Sequence record: NC_024210.1
Source of the DNA: Escherichia phage e4/1c
Strand: one strand, 5' to 3'
Length of the DNA stretch: 47,112 nucleotides
Below are positions 1 through 47,112 of this stretch, piece by piece (within the stretch, counting starts at the first letter, position 1; every line of letters starts with the position of its first letter). The notes under the pieces were generated by a model. It was not told the origin of the DNA and did no database searches. It saw only the letters and a list, made by a program, of their open reading frames with translations. A program made the translations under genes and the position numbers.

Positions 1-2
1 AC

Positions 3-539
3 ATGCCAGAAGAGAAAAAAATTCACCAGAAGATTGGTAACTTCAAGGAGCTTTACAATAAGAAGTATGGCGACATTGCCAATCTTAAGATTAACCACAG
101 ATACACTCCCGAGCAGGTCTTCGACATGGCTGTAAGGTATTTCAGCTGGGCTGAAGAGCAGGCAATTAAAGCTATCGAGACAGCAAGCTTTCAGGGTGTC
201 GTAACGGAAAACCTTGTTCACAAGCCGAGGGTATTTACGATAACTGGATTCCAGCTTTTCTGCGGCGTTGGTCATAATGCTATTAGCAAATGGCGCTCAT
301 CACCAGGATTCGATGAAGTTATGGAGTTCGTCGACTCAGTTATCTTTGAACAGAAGTACCAGTTGGGTGTTAACAACATCGTCAACCCTGGACTTATTGG
401 CAAAGACCTTGGTATTGATAAGCCACAAGAGGTTAACATCAATAACGCTTCAAATGCCGCAGTGAACGATGAAGAGGCGATGAAGGCCGCTCTGGCTTCT
501 GTAATGGATAAACTCGTATCTCTTGCTTCGTCTGCATGA
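3..539 (+). CDS. putative terminase small subunit (178 aa)
   Basis: ORF directly upstream of the large terminase; ATG at position 3 so upstream context is not visible; assignment by position only. Confidence 0.4.
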   Translation: MPEEKKIHQKIGNFKELYNKKYGDIANLKINHRYTPEQVFDMAVRYFSWAEEQAIKAIETASFQGVVTENLVHKPRVFTITGFQLFCGVGHNAISKWRSSPGFDEVMEFVDSVIFEQKYQLGVNNIVNPGLIGKDLGIDKPQEVNINNASNAAVNDEEAMKAALASVMDKLVSLASSA

Positions 540-609
540 TGATTAGATATTACATTTTCTGGTTTGTTGTTCCATCAATTGCCATTGGTGCACTAATGGA
601 GATGATTCA

Positions 610-2178
610 TTGAAGACATTAGTTTGGGAAGAAATGACGCCAGCCGAAAAGCTGGCAGTTAAGGCGCTATCCACTCACAGCTTCGAGGGATTCCTTAGGG
701 TGTGGTTCCAGCTATCTCAATCAGAACGATACATTCCTAACTGGCACCATAAATACCTATGCAGAATCATTGATGAGATAGTTTCTGGCGAGAGGAAGGA
801 TACGATTATAAATATTTCGCCGGGAGCCGGAAAAACCGAGATTACATCGATACACTTTCCGGTTTATTCGATGCTTAAGCTGAAGAAAGTAAGGAACCTT
901 AACCTTTCGTTCTCTGATAGCCTTGTAAAGCGCAACTCTAAGCGTGTTCGCGACCTTATCAAGTCAGTGGAGTTTCAAAGTCTTTTCCCATGCAGGTTTG
1001 GGACCTGTAAGGATGATGAAATTCAGGTTCTGGATGATTCTGGAAAGGTTAAATTTGAATCCATATCCAAGGCAATTGGCTCTCAGATTACGGGTAGTCG
1101 TGGTGGTTATATTACAGACACATATAGCGGATGCATCATGCTAGACGATATCGATAAAGCCGATGATATGTTTAGTAAGGTAAAGCGCGAGTCTGTTCAT
1201 ATGCTGCTAAAGAACACCATTCGCTCTCGTAGGGCAAGTAGCTTAAAGGGTAAATCAACTCCAATTATATCAATTCAGCAAAGGCTTCATACGCAGGATT
1301 CAACGTGGTTCATGACTTCTGGCGGCATGGGTATCGACTTTGATGTGGTTAAAATACCAGCACTGGTTACTGAGGACTATGTGAATGAGCTTCCTGACTG
1401 GATTCGCGAGCAGTTCGAAAAGGACGTCCTTTCATCTGAATCAGTTGAGCGTGACGGGGTCAGGTACTATAGCTACTTCCCGCAAAAGGAATCTGTGCAT
1501 GACTTGGTCGCCATGTGGGACTCAGACCCGTATACATTCCTAAGCCAGTACCAGCAAGCGCCAGTAGCCTTAGGTGGAAACCTGATTAACGTAGATTGGT
1601 TTGTTCGTCTTGATGAGAATAACAGGCCGCCAGTCAAGTATGACTACCGATTCATCACGGCTGATACTGCATTAACCACTAAGAGCTATAGTGACTATTC
1701 AGTGTTCATGTTGTGGGGAGTAAAGGACAGGAAGGCCTACGTGCTGGACATGGTTCGAGGTAAGTATGAGAGCCCGGAGCTAGAGAAGACGCTTGTTGAA
1801 TTTGAGGCCAAACACCGAGCAAACAACAAGACTAACGGCATCCTTAGGAAGATTATCATAGAGAAAAAGGCTTCAGGCATAGGTCTAATCCAGTCAGCGA
1901 GCAGGACGATGCGCACACCTATTGAGCCATACATCCCTGATGTCGACAAGCTTACTAGGGTTATGAGTGCACTGCCGCAGGTTAAGGCTGGTAACGTATT
2001 CCTACCGCAAGAAGCACCATGGCTAAATTCTTTCTTGTCTGAGTTTGCCGCCTTCACTGCCGATGGAACTCACAAACATGATGACATCGTGGATACATTC
2101 ACCATGGGCGTAAACCTTGAGTTGAACTTAGCAGATGATCCAAAAGCCAGGTTAATGAGGTTAGCCGGAGTTAAGTAG
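610..2178 (+). CDS. terL: terminase large subunit
   Basis: 522 aa; Walker A-like SPGAGKTE near N-terminus, acidic nuclease-type C-terminal half, position before portal; start may be TTG 610 or ATG 634. Confidence 0.85.
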   Translation: MKTLVWEEMTPAEKLAVKALSTHSFEGFLRVWFQLSQSERYIPNWHHKYLCRIIDEIVSGERKDTIINISPGAGKTEITSIHFPVYSMLKLKKVRNLNLSFSDSLVKRNSKRVRDLIKSVEFQSLFPCRFGTCKDDEIQVLDDSGKVKFESISKAIGSQITGSRGGYITDTYSGCIMLDDIDKADDMFSKVKRESVHMLLKNTIRSRRASSLKGKSTPIISIQQRLHTQDSTWFMTSGGMGIDFDVVKIPALVTEDYVNELPDWIREQFEKDVLSSESVERDGVRYYSYFPQKESVHDLVAMWDSDPYTFLSQYQQAPVALGGNLINVDWFVRLDENNRPPVKYDYRFITADTALTTKSYSDYSVFMLWGVKDRKAYVLDMVRGKYESPELEKTLVEFEAKHRANNKTNGILRKIIIEKKASGIGLIQSASRTMRTPIEPYIPDVDKLTRVMSALPQVKAGNVFLPQEAPWLNSFLSEFAAFTADGTHKHDDIVDTFTMGVNLELNLADDPKARLMRLAGVK

Positions 2179-2218
2179 CACGAATTGCTAAACACAAGGC
2201 TCATGGATGAGCTATTAT
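2176..2218 (+). promoter_or_regulatory. palindrome-type promoter unit (TAGCACGAATTGCTA, 22 bp, TATTAT) upstream of HNH gene
   Basis: palindrome 2176-2190 starts on terL stop codon TAG; -10-like TATTAT 2213-2218. Confidence 0.5.
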
Positions 2219-2241
2219 TAAAAGAAATGGAGGCGATTAAG

Positions 2242-2720
2242 ATGATTGAAAGATTCTTTGTAGATGATGATTTTTTTGTTAGGTGGGCTGACGGCCCAAA
2301 CAAGGGCAAGGTGGCACAAAAGATATCAAGGAATGGTTACGCAACGGTAAGGGCAAATGAAAAGGTAATGATGGCTCACAGAGTTGTCTATGAGTTAATG
2401 GTTGGTAATATACCTGACGGTATGGACATTGATCACATAAACCACAATAAGCTTGATAATAACCCATCGAACTTAAGGTGTGTAACAAGGTCAGAAAACA
2501 TGAGGAATATGAAAAAACCAGCAATAACACTAGCGGATTTACCGGGGTAACATTCAACAAGTCAAAAGGTAAGTGGCAGTGCCAGGCGCAAATAGATGGA
2601 AAGTATAAGTACTTAGGTTTGTTCGATGATTTAGATCAGGCTATATCAGCAAGGAAGAGATTTAATATTGATAATGGATTTCATGAAAATCATGGCAAGA
2701 CACTAAAAGCCAATGCGTGA
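2242..2720 (+). CDS. HNH-AP2 homing endonuclease, reading frame interrupted by -1 shift at A6 tract (2512-2517)
   Basis: HNH motif region HRVVYELMVGNIPDGMDIDHINHNKLDNNPSNLR in frame of 2185..2550; AP2-like part NTSGFTGVTFNKSKGKWQ continues in ORF 2478..2720; intact paralog at 26791..27294 shows the two parts are contiguous. Confidence 0.6.
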
Positions 2721-2726
2721 TACAAT

Positions 2727-2750
2727 GCCCCTTACTCAGGGGCTTTTTTA
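2727..2750 (+). terminator. rho-independent terminator
   Basis: GC stem gcccc/ggggc followed by T6. Confidence 0.7.
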
Positions 2751-2763
2751 TTGGAGAAATTAC

Positions 2764-3930
2764 ATGGTAAAAGCAGATAGCTACGCAAACATCTTTCTTA
2801 ATGGGAGTGATGGTAGCGAGATTTACGGAAAGCTTGGTGGGCTTGGGCTAACAGCTCCAGCGCAGCTTGAGCAGCTTTACGTCAACAGCGCACTGGTTCG
2901 CCGAATCATTGATATCGTGCCGGAGGTTGCACTTGGTGCTGGCTTTAACATCGAAGGCATCGGCGATGAAGGTGCTTTCTGGTCTCGATGGGATGATTTA
3001 GACCTTTCAGATAGCGTAATTGACGCCTTGGCGTGGGCAAGGTTATACGGTGGCGCAGCTGTAGTAGCAATCGTTAAGGATGGTAGGGCACTAACTAGCC
3101 CAGCTCGTGAAGGTGCGGAGCTCGAAACCGTTCGCGTATACGACCGGCAGCAAGTAAAAGTGCAGACTCGCGAGGAGAATCCACGAAACGCTCGATTTGG
3201 TAAGCCATTAACTTACCGCATCACGCCAAATGGTTCAGCTACGTTCTATGATGTACACTACACACGTTGCCATATCATTGATGGCGAGCGAGTGCCTAAC
3301 AATTTACGTCGTAATAACGATGGTTGGGGCGCAAGCGTGCTAACTAGTGACTTAATCGACGCGATTGACGACTATCAGAACTGCGAGAGACTGGCTACTC
3401 AGTTACTGCGTCGTAAACAGCAGGCTGTATGGAAAGCTAAGGGCCTTGCTGACTTGTGCGATGATTCGGATGGATTTGGCGCGGCTCGTTTACGTCTGGC
3501 TCAGGTAGATAATAACAGTGGCGTTGGTCAGGCTATCGGGATTGACGCGGAGAGTGAAGAGTACAACGTTCTCAACTCAGATATTGGCGGGATTGATACA
3601 TTTCTGAGTCAGAAGTTCGATCGAATCGTTGCTCTGAGCGGCATCCATGAAATTATTCTCAAGGCTAAGAATACTGGCGGTGTATCAGCTAGCCAAAATA
3701 CGGCTCTGGAAACTTTCTATGGTTACGTTGACCGCAAGCGCAAGGCTGAATTACTGCCCCTTCTTGAGTTCCTGCTTCCATTCATTGTAACTGAGCAGGA
3801 ATGGTCAGTAGAATTTAACCCTCTATCGCAGATTAGCGACAAGGATAAATCTGAGATTCTTGAGAAGAACGTCAATTCAGTTGCCGCATTGATTGCAGCT
3901 GGAATCATTGTTGCGCGCAATTTCAACTGA
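2764..3930 (+). CDS. portal protein
   Basis: 389 aa from ATG 2764 with RBS GGAGAAA; position after terL; size and acidic/aromatic content typical; ORF-track start 2713 would span the terminator. Confidence 0.7.
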   Translation: MVKADSYANIFLNGSDGSEIYGKLGGLGLTAPAQLEQLYVNSALVRRIIDIVPEVALGAGFNIEGIGDEGAFWSRWDDLDLSDSVIDALAWARLYGGAAVVAIVKDGRALTSPAREGAELETVRVYDRQQVKVQTREENPRNARFGKPLTYRITPNGSATFYDVHYTRCHIIDGERVPNNLRRNNDGWGASVLTSDLIDAIDDYQNCERLATQLLRRKQQAVWKAKGLADLCDDSDGFGAARLRLAQVDNNSGVGQAIGIDAESEEYNVLNSDIGGIDTFLSQKFDRIVALSGIHEIILKAKNTGGVSASQNTALETFYGYVDRKRKAELLPLLEFLLPFIVTEQEWSVEFNPLSQISDKDKSEILEKNVNSVAALIAAGIIVARNFN

Positions 3931-7064: not shown

Positions 7065-8582
7065 ATGGCTTTAGAATTTAAGCAAATCCTTGCCGGTAAC
7101 ACAGCTTCACTTAGCCACAAGGTGCTAGAGGCAATTGCGGAAGGTTGGCAGCCGTTCGATAGAGTCTTGACCGGAACTGGATCTAACACTATTGGCATGG
7201 TTGTAGCTAAGGGAACTAACGCAGACATTACCGACTTCATGGTTCTGAGTGCAACCAGTCGCCAAAAGCTAATTGATAGAGTAAATGAAATCACTCACGA
7301 AGGTTGGGAGGTGTTTGGCGAACCTTCATCTGAGTCAAATCAGTTTGCAGTTTCTTTAACTAAGGGTTTTCAGGGTACATCTGGTAGGGATGGAATGGCA
7401 GGACCACAAGGCCCACAAGGTCCACGTGGCGAGGTTGGCCCTGAAGGTCCGCAGGGTCCAAAAGGCGACGATGGTACGCCTGGTGAAAAGGGTGAGCGTG
7501 GAGCGGTAGGGCCACAAGGCACGGTTGGGCCTCAAGGCATTCAGGGACCTCAAGGTATTCAAGGACCAGCCGGATTGAAGGGTGACAAAGGTGATAGGGG
7601 TGATACTGGCCCACAGGGACCGCAAGGCTTGAAGGGTGACACTGGAGAGAAAGGTGATCCTGGCGAAGTCGGGCCTGCTGGTTTAACATTCCGTGGGCAA
7701 TGGGTTCCCGCCACTGATTATACAAAAGATGACACTGTAGTTTACGGTGGATCAACCTACTTCGCAGTTAGCAACATTGCAGCAGATGAGGAGCCTGGAG
7801 TATCACCTTTGTGGGTTGTTCTTGCCGCTCAGGGAACTAAGGGTGATAAGGGTGAAAAAGGTGATCCTGGCGATACTGGGCCTCAAGGCGAGAAAGGTGA
7901 TACAGGACCGCAGGGGCCAAGAGGAATTCAGGGTCAGCAAGGCATTCAAGGCTTGCCTGGTGATCAAGGACCAAAAGGTGATCAAGGATTGCAAGGTATC
8001 GCCGGACCAACCGGACCACAAGGCCCTAAAGGTGATACCGGACCGCAGGGCATTCAAGGTCAGCAGGGTATTCGTGGGTTAACTGGCCCAGCCGGTCCAC
8101 AAGGTCCTCAGGGTGGAAGGGGTGACGATGGCCCTCAGGGTGTAAAAGGTGATAAAGGTGATAAAGGTGATAAAGGTGATGCTCCTTACACATTATTTAA
8201 CTCAAGTAACGTGACGACGACATATATTGAAATACCCATCCCACAAGTAACAAACACTGTCCTAAGGGTTAGGCTTTCTGGTGCCAACTTTGAATACAGC
8301 GTTTTGAGCAAAGGTGGAGCGAATAGATATGTTGACTTTTACACATTCATTCCGTCATTAACCAGTTCAACTGGTAACATCTATACAGGAACGACTACCC
8401 TGACGCCAACTGGTAGCCTTTTTTTGGGTAACTCTCCTGTAGCTCTTGGGTTGAGGGAATTGACAATAACACTCAAGGAGTGGGGTGATAGGACTCTAAC
8501 CACAATAAAGGCTATACATCACGGAAGAACAGGTGATAACACAAGGCCTTTGCAGATAACTATGTTTAGTAATAAGTATTAA
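7065..8582 (+). CDS. collagen-like repeat protein (two Gly-X-Y blocks), putative head/virion fibre
   Basis: 505 aa; long runs GPQGPQGPRGEVGPEGPQGPKGDDG... (approx aa 106-205 and 258-365) separated by a non-collagenous insert; 130-aa C-terminal non-repeat domain. Confidence 0.8.
   Translation: MALEFKQILAGNTASLSHKVLEAIAEGWQPFDRVLTGTGSNTIGMVVAKGTNADITDFMVLSATSRQKLIDRVNEITHEGWEVFGEPSSESNQFAVSLTKGFQGTSGRDGMAGPQGPQGPRGEVGPEGPQGPKGDDGTPGEKGERGAVGPQGTVGPQGIQGPQGIQGPAGLKGDKGDRGDTGPQGPQGLKGDTGEKGDPGEVGPAGLTFRGQWVPATDYTKDDTVVYGGSTYFAVSNIAADEEPGVSPLWVVLAAQGTKGDKGEKGDPGDTGPQGEKGDTGPQGPRGIQGQQGIQGLPGDQGPKGDQGLQGIAGPTGPQGPKGDTGPQGIQGQQGIRGLTGPAGPQGPQGGRGDDGPQGVKGDKGDKGDKGDAPYTLFNSSNVTTTYIEIPIPQVTNTVLRVRLSGANFEYSVLSKGGANRYVDFYTFIPSLTSSTGNIYTGTTTLTPTGSLFLGNSPVALGLRELTITLKEWGDRTLTTIKAIHHGRTGDNTRPLQITMFSNKY
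8148..8179 (+). repeat. tandem 9-bp repeat (GGTGATAAA)x3.5 inside collagen-like gene
   Basis: encodes GDKGDKGDKGD; slippage-prone. Confidence 0.8.
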
Positions 8583-12262: not shown

Positions 12263-12305
12263 ATGTTATAATTTCAACTCAAACAAACACGAGAGGATTA
12301 TTTAA

Positions 12306-16418: not shown

Positions 16419-16440
16419 GGGCCCTACGGGGCCCTTTTTA
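16419..16440 (+). terminator. rho-independent terminator/attenuator
   Basis: gggccc-tacg-gggccc plus T5. Confidence 0.6.
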
Positions 16441-16453
16441 TTGGAGAAATATC

Positions 16454-17218
16454 ATGGCAACGCCATTAAGCACTAAGTTTGAGAATCAATTACAAAGCTT
16501 GTTCCCTGGTGAGGTCGTTACACTAATTGAAGTTGACGGCAGCAAGTTTTCGGCACCAACATATCGCTTCCACGGAGAGAACATTAGCTACACAACAGAA
16601 GAAATAATGATGTCTCAGTCAACTGGACAGCCGCTACCAGCAAAGACAATCACTTTCCGCGGCGAAGAGTACGGTGCAAGGCCTTTCGGTATTCAGGGAA
16701 TTAACATGACTTCAGACGGTAAGGCAAACAAGGTAACACTGGTTGTATCCAACGTTGACCAAAACATCTCGGCTCTTATCCGCACTTACAACGGTCTTGT
16801 TCAGGCTAAGGTTACTATCTGGATCACCCTTCGCGAGAATATTAACGAAGATGGCACCATTGCTGATGGGGATTACCGCAAGTTGGTTTACTTCATTGAG
16901 CGACCTAAGCAGGTTGACTACAACACGGCCTCATTTGAATTAACCAGCCCAATGGATATGGATGGTATTTATATTCCGGCCAGACTTGTTCAGTCAGTTT
17001 GTTATTGGGCTCAGCGCAATCAGTACCGATCAGGGAATGGATGTAACTATATGGGTGATAGATACTTCGACAAGGACAACAATCCTGTTAGCGACCCATC
17101 CCAAGACTTCTGTGCCGGAACGGTGACGGCCTGCAAGTTAAGGTTTGGCGCTAACAATCAATTAGACTTTGGCGGTTGTGCTGCTGCAAGCCTGCAAGCT
17201 AAAGCCAACCAAAACTAA
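16454..17218 (+). CDS. minor tail protein (lambda L-like)
   Basis: 254 aa from ATG 16454; conserved Cys cluster near C-terminus; gene order. Confidence 0.6.
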   Translation: MATPLSTKFENQLQSLFPGEVVTLIEVDGSKFSAPTYRFHGENISYTTEEIMMSQSTGQPLPAKTITFRGEEYGARPFGIQGINMTSDGKANKVTLVVSNVDQNISALIRTYNGLVQAKVTIWITLRENINEDGTIADGDYRKLVYFIERPKQVDYNTASFELTSPMDMDGIYIPARLVQSVCYWAQRNQYRSGNGCNYMGDRYFDKDNNPVSDPSQDFCAGTVTACKLRFGANNQLDFGGCAAASLQAKANQN

Positions 17219-23315: not shown

Positions 23316-23470
23316 ATATACGCGTAACCGATGTAACTCGATGTATACAATCTAATCCGAGGAAAATTGTATACGCTTTTTACGCGAGGATACGCATTAG
23401 TTACATTTATAAATCCTTATATATTAAGGGTTTAGAGTATTATTATTATTATATATATTACTATGTATAT
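23316..23470. repeat. regulatory repeat region A (homologous to 43180-43330)
   Basis: shares TATACGCGTA... and a near-identical 60-bp segment ATCCTTATATAT.AAGG..TTAGA.TATTATTATTATTATATATA with region B. Confidence 0.7.
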
Positions 23471-30468: not shown

Positions 30469-30492
30469 TATGTAAATTCTCCATTTGTAAAA

Positions 30493-30507
30493 TAGCACGA
30501 ATTGCTA
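30493..30507. promoter_or_regulatory. palindrome TAGCACGAATTGCTA in 5' region of tail fibre gene (atypical placement)
   Basis: perfect copy about 25 bp upstream of tail fibre start codon, downstream of a TACAAT -10-like hexamer on the minus strand. Confidence 0.4.
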
Positions 30508-30532
30508 AAGTGGATTGTAGCATCTTTCAGGC

Positions 30533-30557
30533 ATAAAAAAACCTCCCGAAGGAGGTT
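30533..30557 (-). terminator. rho-independent terminator after primase gene
   Basis: minus strand cctcc-ttcg-ggagg followed by T8. Confidence 0.7.
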
Positions 30558-31482
30558 AGCTATTCAATAAGTCACTCGCTTTGTATATTCGCTTCCTTAC
30601 ACCTGACTTGAATGAGTACTCATCATTAGGGATTACCACATCAATATTACGATCATCAGCAACGGCGAGTAAATCGAGAGAATGAAGAGTGCATGCAATA
30701 CGTAACTTGGAGTCTTTGAGCGCATAAGCAACCATTTCCATGTTGTAACTGGAGTAGCAAACAAGCACACAGCGGTTCCTAGTAGCGAGATGAACACGAT
30801 AGCCGTCAATGAAATTATCGACCAGATAAGCGTACTCATTATCCTTAAAGGAACCAATAACAGCCACAGACTGACGAGTGTAATCTTTTGCAGCATAACT
30901 AACATCCTCCTCTTCATTTATAAACATTACATTGCACATTTCTTCTGATATACCATCACTATAAGCCATGAAGCAAGGTATTGCATGGATTAATTCACCG
31001 GATTTTGTCTTACCAACATCAAATCCAAACTCGCTATAAATACCCTCGTATGTACTGAGCGGTGTTGATTCTACTCTTTCTGTCCTTTCCATTATTTCTA
31101 CGCATCTTTCGTGGTCAATCTGTGCGCCCATCTTGTATGGTGATGTTCTTGATGCTCTGATATTTGCGCTTTTTATTACTTCAACGGGAACCAGGTTTAG
31201 CCAGTCACCAAGAGCATTAATTGATTCACTAAAAGATTCACCTCTCAGCTTTTGAACCCACAAAATTCCATCTCCTGATCCGCATTGGTTGCAAATGATG
31301 CCACCATCACCAGGCTCACTAACCTTATCAGTCCAACGACTCCTGTCATTACCTCCACAATACAAGCAAGGTTGGTGTTTCTTTGTCTTGAAAAAATTGG
31401 GGTCAGCGCCGCAAATCTGAACCATTGCATCAGCCCACAAACCTTTCATCTTCTGCAAAACTTCTTTCTTGTCGTGATTCAT
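30556..31482 (-). CDS. putative DNA primase (zinc-binding plus TOPRIM-like)
   Basis: 308 aa; N-terminal Cys cluster PCLYCGGNDRSRW ... GGIICNQCG; adjacent to helicase region. Confidence 0.5.
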   Translation of the reverse strand: MNHDKKEVLQKMKGLWADAMVQICGADPNFFKTKKHQPCLYCGGNDRSRWTDKVSEPGDGGIICNQCGSGDGILWVQKLRGESFSESINALGDWLNLVPVEVIKSANIRASRTSPYKMGAQIDHERCVEIMERTERVESTPLSTYEGIYSEFGFDVGKTKSGELIHAIPCFMAYSDGISEEMCNVMFINEEEDVSYAAKDYTRQSVAVIGSFKDNEYAYLVDNFIDGYRVHLATRNRCVLVCYSSYNMEMVAYALKDSKLRIACTLHSLDLLAVADDRNIDVVIPNDEYSFKSGVRKRIYKASDLLNS

Positions 31483-42916: not shown

Positions 42917-42943
42917 GTCTATCTCCTCGCTGTTGATGTAATT

Positions 42944-42987
42944 AATATACCCAATCAGGACTGAATGTTCATTAGCAAAAAGTGCTA
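42944..42987 (-). promoter_or_regulatory. palindrome-type promoter unit (first of minus-strand block)
   Basis: minus-strand TAGCACTTTTTGCTA, 23 bp, TATATT. Confidence 0.5.
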
Positions 42988-43011
42988 TTCGTTCGATTTA
43001 TGGATTGTTGC

Positions 43012-43105
43012 GGATATTGCAATGATTAGATTCACCTTTGCGCACATAGCAATATTGCATCTATTGCAATGATTTTCTGTACTGTTGCGAAAATGGCAAT
43101 GATTG
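43012..43105. repeat. cluster of short palindromic iteron-like sites (ATTGCAATGATT family)
   Basis: TATTGCAATGATT at about 43015 and 43063, GCAATATTGC at about 43049, GGCAATGATT at about 43094. Confidence 0.6.
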
Positions 43106-43179
43106 ATGGATTGATGGAATGAAGGAGGACGCATCAACTGGTTGGTTGGTTTTCTCGCTCGCTCGGAGATAATCATTTG

Positions 43180-43330
43180 TATACGCGTAGTCCGCTGTCT
43201 ACCGATTGTCGACCGTATCCAGATTTACATTTGATACGCCTTGATACAATCCATATACATTAAAACATCCTTATATATAAAGGACTTAGACTATTATTAT
43301 TATTATATATAGTATTATGTATATATGGCG
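43180..43330. repeat. regulatory repeat region B (homologous to 23316-23470)
   Basis: TATACGCGTA plus 60-bp near-identical AT-rich segment shared with region A. Confidence 0.7.
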
Positions 43331-43381
43331 TATCCTTTGTACGCCACTATATAGGTGGGTTTGCTTAAATTTCTATTTTTA

Positions 43382-43398
43382 TTCCTACATTGTAGGAA
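43382..43398. promoter_or_regulatory. perfect 17-bp palindrome TTCCTACATTGTAGGAA with adjacent half-site
   Basis: perfect inverted repeat; half-site TTGTAGGAA repeated at about 43409. Confidence 0.5.
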
Positions 43399-43545
43399 TG
43401 GGACTACGTTGTAGGAAAATATAGGGTGTATCGCCAGAAATGCACTAATAATTTGGATACGGCGAGTACGCCATGACTACATCCAGCAATGAAGCGGCCT
43501 ACGGATGAGAAAATGTAATTATTTATCGAATACATAAAAAATACC

Positions 43546-43574
43546 TTGATATACACGTATCTACTTGCTATAGT
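43546..43574 (+). promoter_or_regulatory. sigma70-type early promoter (TTGATA, 17 bp, TATAGT)
   Basis: canonical spacing; followed by CCATCGAAACG leader and gene at 43614. Confidence 0.6.
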
Positions 43575-43613
43575 CACTCCATCGAAACGCGATAAAAAAC
43601 GAGAGGAATTAAA

Positions 43614-44156
43614 ATGAGCAAGTCAACACTTGGTGAAGTAATTCGATTCATGGCTAAAAAAGCACTCCAGTCAGAGAGCAAGGAGTGCAGAGTTCCAGTT
43701 CGTTCTATATTTAAAGAGGTGCGCGGAGAGGATTACCCAGAGGTTGACGTTAATGAGAAGGATGGATTAAAGAAAACAATTAAAAGTCGATCAATGACTG
43801 AGTTAAAAAACTCATACATTTACAATACAGTTTCACGCATGACTGAGCTGAGAGAAGCGAATGTTAGAGCTAGATATAAATTCATCTGGCTTGATGAAGA
43901 CAAAGAGGAGACAACCCCAGCTGCGTATGACGGTGACGGCGCAGATAAATACTTGGTAATCTATATTGAGAATGGCTCAGTCGAACCCAGGGCAAAGCAA
44001 AAGGAGAAGGCAAAGCAGGAGCAGGCCGCAATCGATAGGTTTAAGGCTCGACTTCTCAAGCTATCACCTAACGTGCTGGAGTTTGAAGGCGATGAGCTGA
44101 CTGGCGCAGTTAAGGCTATCCGCATGTATCAAGAGATGATCAAGGAGTTTAACTAA
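43614..44156 (+). CDS. hypothetical early protein (180 aa)
   Basis: RBS GAGAGGA; first gene after promoter. Confidence 0.5.
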   Translation: MSKSTLGEVIRFMAKKALQSESKECRVPVRSIFKEVRGEDYPEVDVNEKDGLKKTIKSRSMTELKNSYIYNTVSRMTELREANVRARYKFIWLDEDKEETTPAAYDGDGADKYLVIYIENGSVEPRAKQKEKAKQEQAAIDRFKARLLKLSPNVLEFEGDELTGAVKAIRMYQEMIKEFN

Positions 44157-44704
44157 TGTTTGATTTCGACGAAGATAAGTTAACTGATGACCAGGTGATG
44201 GAAGTCGCCAGGCAAGATAACCTGCCGCCACTTCGTGTGGCAATCAATGCTAATGGATACCGCCAATCATTCAAGTTCTGGCCGAGCGCCGAAGAGATGC
44301 TGTGCGTCAAGTTGAGCTACAAATACGGCGTCGTAGTGCATAAAATTAAGCACTTATGCGGCAATACAGGAATGCTTTACGTGAGCCAGCTATACCGGCA
44401 GATCAGAGAGGTCCAGCCATTCGTTGGTCGTGATGACATATTCAACGACCTTAGTAATATCATTCTGCCGTCACTCCAGGACGCCGGAATCACATGCCGG
44501 ATTGGCGATCAGGTGTTTGCGCATCCGTACCTGGTGGAAATGGATGAACGAGACGTGTACAGATGGTGCAGTCAGTACCTATCCGACGCACCAAGCTCAC
44601 ACTACGTGCGACCGCAGACAACAATCCATGGCTATGATGCCGATGAGGTGGAGAAGGCCATCCAGTTCTACCGGAAAGCGAAAGCTCTCCTGAATGGTGA
44701 ATAG
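44156..44704 (+). CDS. short paralog of P-loop NTPase gene (N- and C-terminal modules only, no ATPase core)
   Basis: MFDFDEDKLTDDQVMEVARQDNLPPLRVAINANGYRQS matches N-terminus of ORF 39457..41040; C-terminal LY..R.V.PF...LP.L...TC.IGD.V..P also shared. Confidence 0.6.
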   Translation: MFDFDEDKLTDDQVMEVARQDNLPPLRVAINANGYRQSFKFWPSAEEMLCVKLSYKYGVVVHKIKHLCGNTGMLYVSQLYRQIREVQPFVGRDDIFNDLSNIILPSLQDAGITCRIGDQVFAHPYLVEMDERDVYRWCSQYLSDAPSSHYVRPQTTIHGYDADEVEKAIQFYRKAKALLNGE

Positions 44705-44744
44705 CACGAATTGATAAACAAAAAACAGGGTATTCAGCTATGAT
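44702..44744 (+). promoter_or_regulatory. palindrome-type promoter unit
   Basis: TAGCACGAATTGATA starting on stop codon TAG, 22 bp, TATGAT, then CTATCAACCAAACGAGAGGA. Confidence 0.5.
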
Positions 44745-44775
44745 TACCCTATCAACCAAACGAGAGGAATAAAAT

Positions 44776-45009
44776 ATGATCGTAATTAACCTGTCTGAAA
44801 GGCAAGCAAAAGAGATTAAAGCGGTAATGATGCACTGCCTTAACCGAAAGCTATTTAGCTCCTCAGAATCGCTTACAGAGGTCGTAGAGCAGATTCGCAA
44901 TCAAGAGTTTGAAGATGTTCTGCCGTGGGAAGAGGATTTAGCCTGGCTTGAGTACGAGAAGATTTGCACGGTTCTTTCAGGTTGCCAGCTGGCTAGCCAA
45001 TACAAGTGA
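44776..45009 (+). CDS. hypothetical protein (77 aa)
   Basis: ATG after conserved leader. Confidence 0.45.
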   Translation: MIVINLSERQAKEIKAVMMHCLNRKLFSSSESLTEVVEQIRNQEFEDVLPWEEDLAWLEYEKICTVLSGCQLASQYK

Positions 45010-45127
45010 CCATCTACGAACACAAATTTAGTAGCAGCGGCATACCAATGTTGCTGCACTACGTAAGCGAAAAATACGCAATATTGATGCAGAAGACGCA
45101 TGGCGGGACAATAGCGAGGATTGAGAT

Positions 45128-45283
45128 ATGAATGAATTTAAAATTGAAGATATTATTCTTGATGATGCTGTTTATTATCACGAGAATGATGGCTTTGATA
45201 CTGAATGTATGGCTGATGATGGCATTGCTTTGATTATCGAGCGAGATAAGTTCGGCGAGATCGTTCAGTGGAGTGAGCAATAA
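45128..45283 (+). CDS. small highly acidic protein (51 aa)
   Basis: not in ORF track; RBS GAGGA; 15 of 51 residues Asp/Glu. Confidence 0.35.
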   Translation: MNEFKIEDIILDDAVYYHENDGFDTECMADDGIALIIERDKFGEIVQWSEQ

Positions 45284-45603
45284 TGAGCAAATACGACAAA
45301 GAGATTATTGGCTTGGATGGAACCAAGACGACAGTTGATGTATATCGTGTTATCGCAGCATTCGGCGTAACCGACCCAGCGTTACAGCACGCCATCAAAA
45401 AGGTACTGTGCAGCGGCATTCGAACGCGACACAAGGGTTACACCACTGACATCAATGAGGCCATTGTGTCGCTTCAAAAGGCTGTGGAATTTCATGGGCA
45501 AAGAGGCGCGCATGTTCAGGAGATTATTGATAAGTATCGCGATGGCTCTAAGATTCAGAAGGTAGTAAGCAATAGGAATTACCTAGATAGCTGGAGCAAA
45601 TAG
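45283..45603 (+). CDS. hypothetical protein (106 aa)
   Basis: TAATG overlap; stop TAG is first triplet of next palindrome. Confidence 0.45.
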   Translation: MSKYDKEIIGLDGTKTTVDVYRVIAAFGVTDPALQHAIKKVLCSGIRTRHKGYTTDINEAIVSLQKAVEFHGQRGAHVQEIIDKYRDGSKIQKVVSNRNYLDSWSK

Positions 45604-45643
45604 CACGAATTGCTAAACATAAATCGCAAGGATGCGTTACTAT
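45601..45643 (+). promoter_or_regulatory. palindrome-type promoter unit
   Basis: TAGCACGAATTGCTA, 22 bp, TACTAT, then TTATCGAAATGAGACGAGGA. Confidence 0.5.
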
Positions 45644-45675
45644 TAATTTATCGAAATGAGACGAGGAAAGATTAA

Positions 45676-45804
45676 ATGTGTGGATATGATGAGTTGCCAA
45701 TTGAATGGTGCAAAAAGATGATGGATGAGGCTAAAGATGGGGATGAAGTAATGGCGTACTTTGAGTTGATGAACATGTGGCGTGAGCGCGAGGAGAAGAA
45801 ATGA
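45676..45804 (+). CDS. hypothetical small protein (42 aa)
   Basis: not in ORF track; ATGA-coupled to next gene. Confidence 0.3.
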   Translation: MCGYDELPIEWCKKMMDEAKDGDEVMAYFELMNMWREREEKK

Positions 45805-46031
45805 AGATTTACGTATTCACTGGCAACTTATGGGCAGCCAACGATTCGGAGGCTGGTGACGGTAAGCGGGCAAATTCATATGTGGAGCAAGAAATCATGA
45901 TCTGGATTCATACGTACTACACTGGCAAGTTTAACAGCGTTATGCATAAGCGCGTGCACGATAGCTACGAATCAGCAAAGGCACAGCACGAAGTTCTCGG
46001 TGGCGACATTCAATCTTACAAGAAGGCTTAA
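45801..46031 (+). CDS. hypothetical protein (76 aa)
   Basis: ORF track; coupled start. Confidence 0.45.
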   Translation: MKIYVFTGNLWAANDSEAGDGKRANSYVEQEIMIWIHTYYTGKFNSVMHKRVHDSYESAKAQHEVLGGDIQSYKKA

Positions 46032-46033
46032 CC

Positions 46034-46273
46034 ATGTTCGGACTTACTCAACCACAATTCAACGCAGTACGCGCTCAGGCTAAGAAACTTAACGAGGCAG
46101 TGGATAAAATGACTGCAAAGCAGAAACAGGACAACGAGGTAATGAAGTATGTTATCTGCGAGTTTCACAGTCCGGTAAGCACAATCATCGAGAAGATACG
46201 CTTTGTTTGGGTGGCAGGATATCTTGCTGGTCGCGTGGGTAAGCGTGAGGATGGGGAACAAATATATGACTAA
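46034..46273 (+). CDS. hypothetical protein (79 aa)
   Basis: ORF track; 2 nt after upstream stop. Confidence 0.45.
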   Translation: MFGLTQPQFNAVRAQAKKLNEAVDKMTAKQKQDNEVMKYVICEFHSPVSTIIEKIRFVWVAGYLAGRVGKREDGEQIYD

Positions 46274-46460
46274 ATCACTAGGGCAAGTCGAATGCATTGA
46301 GTCTTACAATGATAATAAGTTCAAGGCTGGTAAGTCTTACAGCATTTTGTCATCACCCGCATATAACTGGGTTAAGTGTGAGTCAGAGGATGGATGTATA
46401 GAGATGGTTAAAGATGGCAATGACATTGAATTTGGTTACTTTCAGATAAATTATGACTGA
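46266..46460 (+). CDS. hypothetical protein (64 aa)
   Basis: start taken at ATG 46266 overlapping upstream stop (ATGACTAA). Confidence 0.4.
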   Translation: MTKSLGQVECIESYNDNKFKAGKSYSILSSPAYNWVKCESEDGCIEMVKDGNDIEFGYFQINYD

Positions 46461-46657
46461 GCTATCAATATGGTTACTTGCCGCTATGCTGACATGGATT
46501 TATTTCGTAGTCATGGCTTGACGAAAATGTTAAAGGTGGGTAGTATTAACCACGTAGACGTCAATTACCGTAACGCGCATCGCGGAGATGCAAGCCGATA
46601 GCCGGGCTGGATAAAGATACGAGGCAAATACCACTACACCAGCGCAAATGGTGTATG

Positions 46658-46697
46658 CCGGACCTTTCCGAGGATTGGCCGGACCTTCCGAGGATTG
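46658..46697 (+). repeat. tandem direct repeat 2 x 20 bp (CCGGACCTT(T)CCGAGGATTG)
   Basis: two adjacent copies differing by one T, about 40 bp upstream of the tRNA. Confidence 0.7.
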
Positions 46698-46735
46698 TGA
46701 AACCTCCCCGCATTCGGTAAGCGGGACTCATTCTA

Positions 46736-46811
46736 GTTCTGCTGGCGTAACAGGATAACGCAGAGACCTCCTAAGTCTCAGTTACTGGTTCGAGTCCAGT
46801 GCGGAACGCCA
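46736..46811 (+). tRNA. tRNA-Arg (anticodon CCT), CCA encoded
   Basis: manual cloverleaf: acceptor GTTCTGC/GCGGAAC (one G-U), D-arm GCGT-AACAGGATA-ACGC, anticodon stem GAGAC/GTCTC with loop CTCCTAA, T-arm ACTGG-TTCGAGT-CCAGT, discriminator G then CCA. Confidence 0.7.
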
Positions 46812-47041
46812 ATCATGGAGCATCCTAGTGAATAACTACGAAGTCCGTTTAACTTCCCGCCTAATGGGTCGGCAATGTAAATCTTGCCAGCAATCCTACG
46901 AAGGTAGGTTCCTTGCTAACAGCCCTGAAGAAGCAGTTGCAGCCGCAAAGGCAGCATTTAATATTGACCTGACAGTTCACAAGTTAAGCGTTGATAAAGT
47001 ATCCCTCGTTTGAGATTGATAATCTCGCAATGTATTACTTC

Positions 47042-47066
47042 GCCCTCCTAGTGAGGGCTTTTTTTC
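47042..47066 (+). terminator. rho-independent terminator
   Basis: gccctc-ctagt-gagggc plus T7; followed by TACAAT and AGGAGG that would serve the gene at position 3 if the ends are joined. Confidence 0.7.
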
Positions 47067-47112
47067 GTCTCCAGTCATGGTACAATGACTTTTAAAACAG
47101 GAGGAATATCAC

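Follow-up and report, generated by a model that had tools for sequence, protein, structure and literature searches.

T1-like siphoviruses of the family Drexlerviridae are described as pac-type headful packagers whose virion DNA is terminally redundant and circularly permuted (PMC4070988, PMC11447400, PMC10838988, PMC7718038). The pac site of TLS was located by restriction mapping, and position 1 of its record, which begins AGATTT, was assigned as pac (PMC11447400). The record of UDF157lw was reorganised according to PhageTerm, which indicated headful packaging with a preferred pac site (PMC10838988). By a published convention, Niu et al. (2014) opened these genomes at the initiation codon of terS (PMC4070988). 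As regards transcription, the late region of T1 has been described in terms of "transcriptons", in which rho-independent terminators flank RpoD promoters (Roberts et al. 2004, as cited in PMC11447400).

Here we analysed the complete record of Escherichia phage e4/1c (NC_024210.1), a stretch of 47,112 nucleotides that we refer to as the window. A preliminary description had proposed that its two ends join, so that a terminator, a TACAAT and an AGGAGG at the 3′ end would feed the gene that starts at position 3, as expected of a complete, circularly permuted or terminally redundant genome.

Relatedness and completeness of the genome

Megablast identified the Rogunavirus coliphages Rogue1, JK06, AKS96, AHP42, C119, phiKP26 and UDF157lw as the closest records. 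About 79-84% of the window could be aligned to Rogunavirus genomes at ~89-92% identity. Each half of the window aligned over ~83% to AKS96/AHP42 (identity 89-92%), and the window spanned the full length of both. Local blastn showed the whole 45.8-kb Rogue1 genome to be collinear with the window as a rotation, 40.0 of the 47.1 kb being aligned: the window from position 3 onward corresponds to Rogue1 3764 to 45805, and window 43054 to 47111 to Rogue1 1 to 3762. The ends of the Rogue1 record thereby adjoin each other inside the window, between 43053 and 43054. The claim that the genome is complete is supported by this rotation of the whole Rogue1 map.

Gene order is collinear with the Rogunavirus genomes, tRNA-Arg(CCT) is shared, and the terS DNA is 93-98% identical. 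The window differs from them in replaced segments (including 6.0-8.6 kb, 23.7-24.8 kb and 44.2-44.7 kb), in 2 extra nucleotides at the junction, and in the C-terminal end of terS, which is followed by a 25-aa mini-ORF. The T1-like hallmarks TerS, TerL and portal are present together with one tRNA-Arg, and the size fits the expected 43-48 kb or so (PMC4070988). On both its similarity and collinearity and its hallmark genes, size and tRNA, the sequence places the phage in Drexlerviridae, Rogunavirinae, genus Rogunavirus. Overall similarity to the nearest records is ~75% by our own estimate, which is not a VIRIDIC value, against a genus criterion of roughly 70% or more; at this similarity, the phage probably represents a species of its own among those collected. 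The exact TerS protein occurs in no record of the assembly collection, and no copy of the window sequence turned up among plasmid records or among 5,426 complete E. coli genomes, which is what one would expect of a virulent phage.

An ORF of 505 aa at 7065-8582 carries collagen-like Gly-X-Y repeats (repeat family D3) and lies within the ~6.0-8.6 kb segment that does not align with Rogue1. At this spot Rogue1 has a "tail fiber protein" amid head genes, and the segment is probably a swapped decoration or fibre module.

Junction of the record ends

At its 3′ end the window has the sequence ...CGCCCTCCTAGTGAGGGCTTTTTTTCGTCTCCAGTCATGGTACAATGACTTTTAAAACAGGAGGAATATCAC and at its 5′ end ACATGCCAGAAG..., with the following features on the two sides of the break.

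47042 to 47065, + strand: intrinsic (rho-independent) terminator with a 6-bp GC stem, 5-nt loop and T7, supported by scan, fold and conservation
47078 to 47086, + strand: putative extended -10 sigma70-type promoter TGGTACAAT, conserved in 6 Drexlerviridae genera
47099 to 47104, + strand: Shine-Dalgarno sequence AGGAGG of terS, invariant in 10 relatives, 8 nt from the ATG
47111 to 47112, no strand: AC, the same as bases 1-2, with a 2-nt gap in 10 relatives, in a metagenome contig and at the AKS96 record ends
3 to 539, + strand: terS, small terminase subunit (P22 gp3 family), 178 aa (PF16677, phrog_606, 3P9A)

All three elements of the preliminary description are present; the one quibble is that TACAAT lies 27-32 nt from the end, just outside the "last 30 nt" to which it had been assigned. 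To examine the adjacency of the ends, we aligned the joined window ends with 130 nt upstream and 30 nt downstream of the terS start in ten relatives with records that begin at other points (Rogue1, JK06, Sf12, phiEB49, C119, phiKP26, Sd1, BECP10, UDF157lw and phiJLA23). In 10/10 the homologue of the window 3′ end leads straight into terS, so that the two record ends lie side by side in genomes that were linearised independently. Searches with degenerate junction patterns returned, apart from contigs matching Sd1, phiEB49, Sf12 and phiKP26 in length, one metagenome contig in which the 3′-end block likewise directly adjoins terS, with 8 nt between Shine-Dalgarno sequence and ATG. Additional unique sequence between end and start, named beforehand as the observation that would speak against closure, was found in none of these eleven sequences. 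The ATG at 3-5, assigned to AGGAGG upon joining, opens the 178-aa terS, and in the relatives the block runs into this same gene. By sequence and by context in relatives, the last 71 nt form an unremarkable control region between genes, cut off from its own gene by the record break.

The same layout is seen in AKS96, whose record ends ...AACAGGAGGAATATCAA and begins ATGTCAGAAG; AHP24, AHS24 and AHP42 are opened at this point as well. Because AKS96 ends alike and because Niu et al. state that such genomes were opened at terS (PMC4070988), we regard the layout as a known annotation convention. The window is thus very probably the complete genome of a virulent T1-like siphovirus, assembled as a closed circle and written as a linear record opened just before terS. 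This closure, like the 2-nt duplication and the pac position discussed below, rests on relatives that are 79-95% identical.

The manner in which the ends join needed correction. Bases 1-2 of the window (AC) are identical to its last two, an exact terminal overlap of k=2. A plain join of the window ends places AGGAGG 10 nt from the ATG, versus 8 nt in all 10 relatives and the metagenome contig, and in all 10 relatives the 2-nt gap falls precisely at the break point. The AC at 47111-47112 is therefore probably a 2-nt duplication that arose when a circular assembly was rotated or linearised, and the true circle probably measures 47,110 bp with a Shine-Dalgarno to ATG spacing of 8 nt. The proposed adjacency of the ends stands, with a 2-nt overlap in place of simple abutment.

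Packaging genes and virion ends

The terS product matches PF16677 (GP3_package; 3e-8), phrog_606 (1.6e-60) and the P22 gp3 structure 3P9A (1.4e-12), and is 98.8% identical in amino acids to Rogue1 TerS. It belongs to the P22 gp3 family and so to a headful lineage, whereas TerL is recognised only as a generic large terminase. TerL gave no sequence match in the PDB, and we therefore drew no conclusion on packaging type from it.

536 to 613, + strand: 25-aa hydrophobic mini-ORF MMIRYYIFWFVVPSIAIGALMEMIH, starting in the terS stop (ATGA) and ending in the terL TTG start (TTGA)
610 to 2178, + strand: terL, large terminase subunit (phrog_38 at 7e-109; PF17289)
42917 to 43613, no strand: largest noncoding region, AT-rich, repeat-filled and divergent; putative pac-proximal virion end, from the record starts of relatives

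The mini-ORF is possibly a translational-coupling bridge, and Sd1 has an annotated 37-aa ORF at the same spot. Elsewhere among the relatives, terS and terL overlap directly or are separated by an HNH endonuclease gene (phiEB49, BECP10); these varied contents mark the joint as a variable insertion point. Further downstream, the mechanical start of the portal ORF is at 2713, and its first 50 nt include a GGAG as well as a terminator hairpin, CCCCT-TACTC-AGGGG, with its T run (2728-2750). Translation of portal most likely begins instead from an in-frame ATG at ~2764, in agreement with Rogue1 gp17. A block of terminator, TTGGAGAAAT and ATG like that of the portal recurs at 16429-16460.

By analogy with the family, pac-initiated headful packaging would be expected to yield linear virion DNA with terminal redundancy and partial circular permutation; this part of the preliminary description agrees with what is documented for the relatives. 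Their record starts point to the noncoding region listed above. The first base of the UDF157lw record maps to window ~43130 and the Rogue1 start to 43054. Position 1 of the TLS record, its pac, lies 8.8 kb upstream of terS in the equivalent region, and the T1 record is also broken in the equivalent divergent noncoding region. The first packaging cut would accordingly be expected, on the basis of these relatives, near 43.0-43.3 kb, roughly 4 kb upstream of terS. An ORF at 42985-43176 on the minus strand, within this region, had no PHROG match.

With T1 and TLS the window shares homologous TerS, TerL and portal proteins and the order noncoding region, small-ORF cluster, terS, and members of the family are terminally redundant and partly permuted. 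The cluster between presumed pac and terS measures ~4 kb in the window compared with 8.8 kb in TLS. As for P22, TerS is a gp3 homologue with about 30% identity to P22-like gp3, and both phages are headful packagers (in our case by expectation), but the P22 pac lies inside gene 3, whereas the first cut of T1-like phages was mapped or predicted kilobases upstream of terS.

Several repeats occur in the regions concerned. A 99-nt direct repeat with 77% identity, AT-rich and containing TATTATTATTATTATATATA, is found at 23372-23470 and 43226-43324, in two large noncoding regions of diverging transcription. Within the presumed pac region there are also a 47-nt tandem pair carrying ATTGCAATGAT motifs (43008-43101) and, at 43382-43417, the near-perfect inverted repeat TTCCTACATTGTAG / CTACGTTGTAGGAA. 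All of these may represent early promoters, an origin or sites bound by TerS. AGATTT also occurs in the presumed pac region, at 43221; being a 6-mer, it was not accepted as evidence for a pac motif.

Three other readings of the record ends were weighed against the one given above. That unique sequence is missing between the window end and start is barely credible, since 11 independent relatives have no intervening sequence and keep the spacing from promoter and Shine-Dalgarno sequence to ATG constant at 8 nt, every alignable part of the Rogue1 map has a counterpart in the window in the same circular order, and the 47.1 kb falls inside the genus range of 43.0-47.9 kb. Only slightly better placed is the reading of the ends as real virion DNA ends, produced by pac or cos cleavage directly before terS. 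Many phages do carry the packaging site in or next to terS, and the homologous P22 gp3 is encoded by the gene that contains pac (P22 pac as cited in PMC11447400). The break is, however, situated 2 nt before the start codon, exactly where the published convention opens such genomes, and the ends show neither a terminal repeat nor a cohesive-end signature. The PhageTerm start of UDF157lw and the mapped pac of TLS lie 4-9 kb upstream of terS in noncoding DNA, the restriction patterns of relatives are circular or permuted (PMC7718038), and the sole P22-pac-like string in terS is the 7-mer GAAGATT at position 29, which has 9 copies in the genome. We consider this reading highly improbable, and on the sequence and the published convention the window was cut open by annotation, its ends being neither physical ends nor those made at pac. 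Apart from the 2-nt overlap, the record has no terminal repeat, no cohesive ends and no long direct repeat linking its ends; because assemblers collapse redundancy, this counts as weak evidence for a permuted genome.

A more serious competitor is that the ends abut without overlap, so that CACAC would be genuine, the circle 47,112 bp and the Shine-Dalgarno spacing 10 nt. A dinucleotide slip from CAC to CACAC is a common mutation, translation would still be workable at 10 nt, and an accidental 2-nt match of the ends has a chance of 1 in 16. Against this, the spacing is 8 nt in 11/11 relatives, and the two additional bases coincide with the record break, the very place where an error of rotation or slicing would produce them. 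The resulting junction string AACAGGAGGAATATCACACATG is carried by no database sequence, the exact string having been searched for in IMG/VR. We give genuine CACAC a real but clearly smaller chance than the duplication of AC, which we retain as the probable explanation.

Predicted control elements upstream of terS

The genes that precede the junction are as follows.

46736 to 46811, + strand: tRNA-Arg (anticodon CCT), found by ARAGORN and as an Rfam tRNA with 56.3 bits; annotated at the same place in relatives
46828 to 47013, + strand: last small ORF before the junction, 61 aa with a GTG start, matching phrog_2919 end to end (2e-28); homologue of Rogue1 gp14

The terminator begins 29 nt past the stop of this ORF, on the transcribed strand. 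It consists of GCCCTC (47042-47047), the loop CTAGT, GAGGGC (47053-47058) and seven T (47059-47065), and was called by the terminator scan. Its predicted fold has -11.0 kcal/mol (z = -3.3), and 0/200 shuffles folded as well. The stem is unchanged in the 10 relatives, which vary in the loop only, and 15 relatives have either this terminator or an equivalent hairpin in its place. Hairpins with a T run and other stem sequences are present in SU57 (Braunvirinae), JMPW2 (Tunavirus), tonn (Warwickvirus), Skenny (Webervirus) and Ec_L1 (Eclunavirus), among them CCCGC-TTCG-GCGGG, CCCGCCG-CAC-GGCGGG and AGCCCTC-GCTT-GAGGGCT; in Skenny a terminator is annotated at this position. Close relatives showed no compensatory changes in the stem, so that the support for the stem comes from the replacement hairpins of the distant genera. 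The element at 47042-47065 would thus act as the terminator of the upstream cluster and end the transcript of ORF 46828-47013.

The tRNA-Arg(CCT), 230 nt ahead of the terminator, is a conserved feature of the genus, and some relatives have an additional tRNA-Val or tRNA-Trp alongside. An Rfam search of the window returned tRNA only.

Downstream of the terminator, the TACAAT at 47081-47086 is preceded by TGG, forming the extended -10 motif TGGTACAAT 12 nt before the Shine-Dalgarno sequence. The TG is located one base upstream of the hexamer, T-12, A-11 and T-7 are kept, and the site is intergenic and faces terS. A recognisable -35 is absent: CTTTTT stands at 17-nt spacing, and because of this poor -35 a two-hexamer sigma70 scan did not call the site. 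Promoters of the extended -10 class dispense with a -35. In view of the TG extension and the conservation we kept the promoter reading, and we infer that TGGTACAAT is the extended -10 promoter of terS, with transcription starting near 47093. The + strand of the 47 kb contains AGGAGG just 10 times, which corresponds to a ~0.1% chance of a usable placement before a given ATG.

In the Rogunavirus relatives the block of terminator, TGGTACAAT and AGGAGG is nearly unchanged, the part from the -10 to the Shine-Dalgarno sequence being identical, with few substitutions elsewhere. Six Drexlerviridae genera keep TGnTAnAAT/TGATATACT at the same place although the surrounding sequence has diverged; the n position varies between G and A, while T-12, A-11, T-7 and the upstream TG are retained. 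In the five distant lineages (SU57, JMPW2, tonn, Skenny and Ec_L1) TerS is only 50-65% identical, and the order of elements before terS is nevertheless the same: hairpin and T run, then TGGTATAAT / TGGTAAAAT / TGATATACT, then AGGAG or AAGAGG, then ATG. In SU57 a promoter is annotated in the short stretch that separates the ribosome-binding site of terS from the ORF before it. Within the window, the composite of a terminator followed by an extended -10 recurs twice, at 12264(+) and 30522(-), the former corresponding to an annotated extended -10 promoter in Rogue1. Half of the strict TGNTAYAAT sites (4/8) lie in noncoding DNA, which makes up roughly 8-9% of the genome (P about 0.003); genome-wide enrichment of this motif was not significant (8 found vs 4.4 expected, with 8/100 shuffles reaching 8).

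Could TACAAT have been kept for another reason, with terS transcribed from promoters farther upstream through a leaky terminator? The poor -35, the silence of the promoter scan and the lack of genome-wide enrichment would fit such a situation, as would the report of German et al. (2024) that TLS has few convincing sigma70 promoters (PMC11447400). Yet the position of TGnTAnAAT is kept in six genera amid diverged surroundings, and it is the free base n that varies (G or A) and not T-12, A-11, T-7 or the TG. The pairing of terminator and extended -10 is found twice more in the window, and the T1 late region has itself been described, as summarised in PMC11447400, as RpoD promoters flanked by terminators. 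We therefore regard the absence of a working promoter as unlikely. The junction resembles the T1 transcriptons in that a terminator is followed by a sigma70-type promoter heading the packaging and head block, with two further composites in the window. It differs in that its predicted promoter is of the extended -10 kind without a -35.

With TGGTACAAT as the terS promoter, the intrinsic terminator would stop transcription of the upstream small ORFs and tRNA-Arg, and host sigma70 would restart it near 47093 at the extended -10, without a usable -35. Ribosomes would then be guided to the terS ATG by AGGAGG, and terS would be followed by the mini-ORF, terL, portal and head genes. It is conceivable, albeit a long shot, that the composite of terminator, T run and extended -10, kept in at least six Drexlerviridae genera and present twice more in the window, does not simply pair a stop with an always active start but serves as a timed late-gene switch, for example with read-through or a phage factor controlling when the packaging and head operon is expressed. 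T1-like phages are not known to encode an RNA polymerase or a late sigma factor. If true, a switch of this kind would be their as yet unexplained means of late-gene timing.

A repeat in the intergenic regions

The Drexlerviridae intergenic repeat ATAGCACnnnTTGnTAAA, whose function was left as an open question by German et al. (2024; PMC11447400), has 15 copies in the window vs 0.66 expected, a number reached by 0/100 shuffles. The 18-nt cores are positioned as follows.

2175, 26030, 30492, 32022, 34418, 35109, 35795, 37268, 44701 and 45600, + strand: copies of ATAGCACnnnTTGnTAAA
23312, 41342, 41540, 42300 and 42988, - strand: copies of ATAGCACnnnTTGnTAAA

All but one of the copies (14/15) point along local transcription. 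In the window, Rogue1, TLS and T1, a -10-like TATAnT is located at a fixed 22-23 nt after the TTGnTA of the repeat, a distance 5-6 nt longer than a sigma70 -35 would allow. Repeat and TATAnT are followed by a semi-conserved leader (CATCGAAACGA), a Shine-Dalgarno sequence and an ATG. The palindrome of the repeat core, TAGCA-N5-TGCTA, would be centred about -41/-42 from the predicted start, a geometry like that of class-II activators. In many cases a small GC hairpin is found in the spacer, where three of the T1 copies have an annotated rho-independent terminator. From these sequence features, repeat and TATAnT may form a promoter class that depends on a phage factor.

The exception in orientation is 30492+, which lies between minus-strand genes. 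Its palindromic core has a minus-strand extended -10 promoter, TGCTACAAT (30522-30514), on one side and the beginning of the tail-fibre gene on the other (region 30483-30560), i.e. it is in the position of an operator or roadblock and not upstream. The promoter TGCTACAAT is preceded by a terminator hairpin, CCTCC-TTCG-GGAGG, with a T run.

The junction promoter lacks the ATAGCACnnnTTGnTAAA repeat. We had considered it as a decayed copy of the family's 21-nt repeat and dropped this idea, as the alignment was unconvincing. In JMPW2 the terS promoter overlaps a copy of the 21-nt repeat.

Implications for the phage and its record

The biology of the junction is already known: it is a routine property of a deposited phage genome, and the junction itself yields no new biology. 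The window can be used as a complete circular map, probably of 47,110 bp, in which the predicted promoter and the ribosome-binding site of terS are found at the opposite end of the record from their gene. Because the pac-proximal end is likely to lie near 43.1 kb, the record ends should not be taken as virion termini. For annotating, comparing or engineering the phage, the record is best rotated or joined with the duplicated AC omitted.
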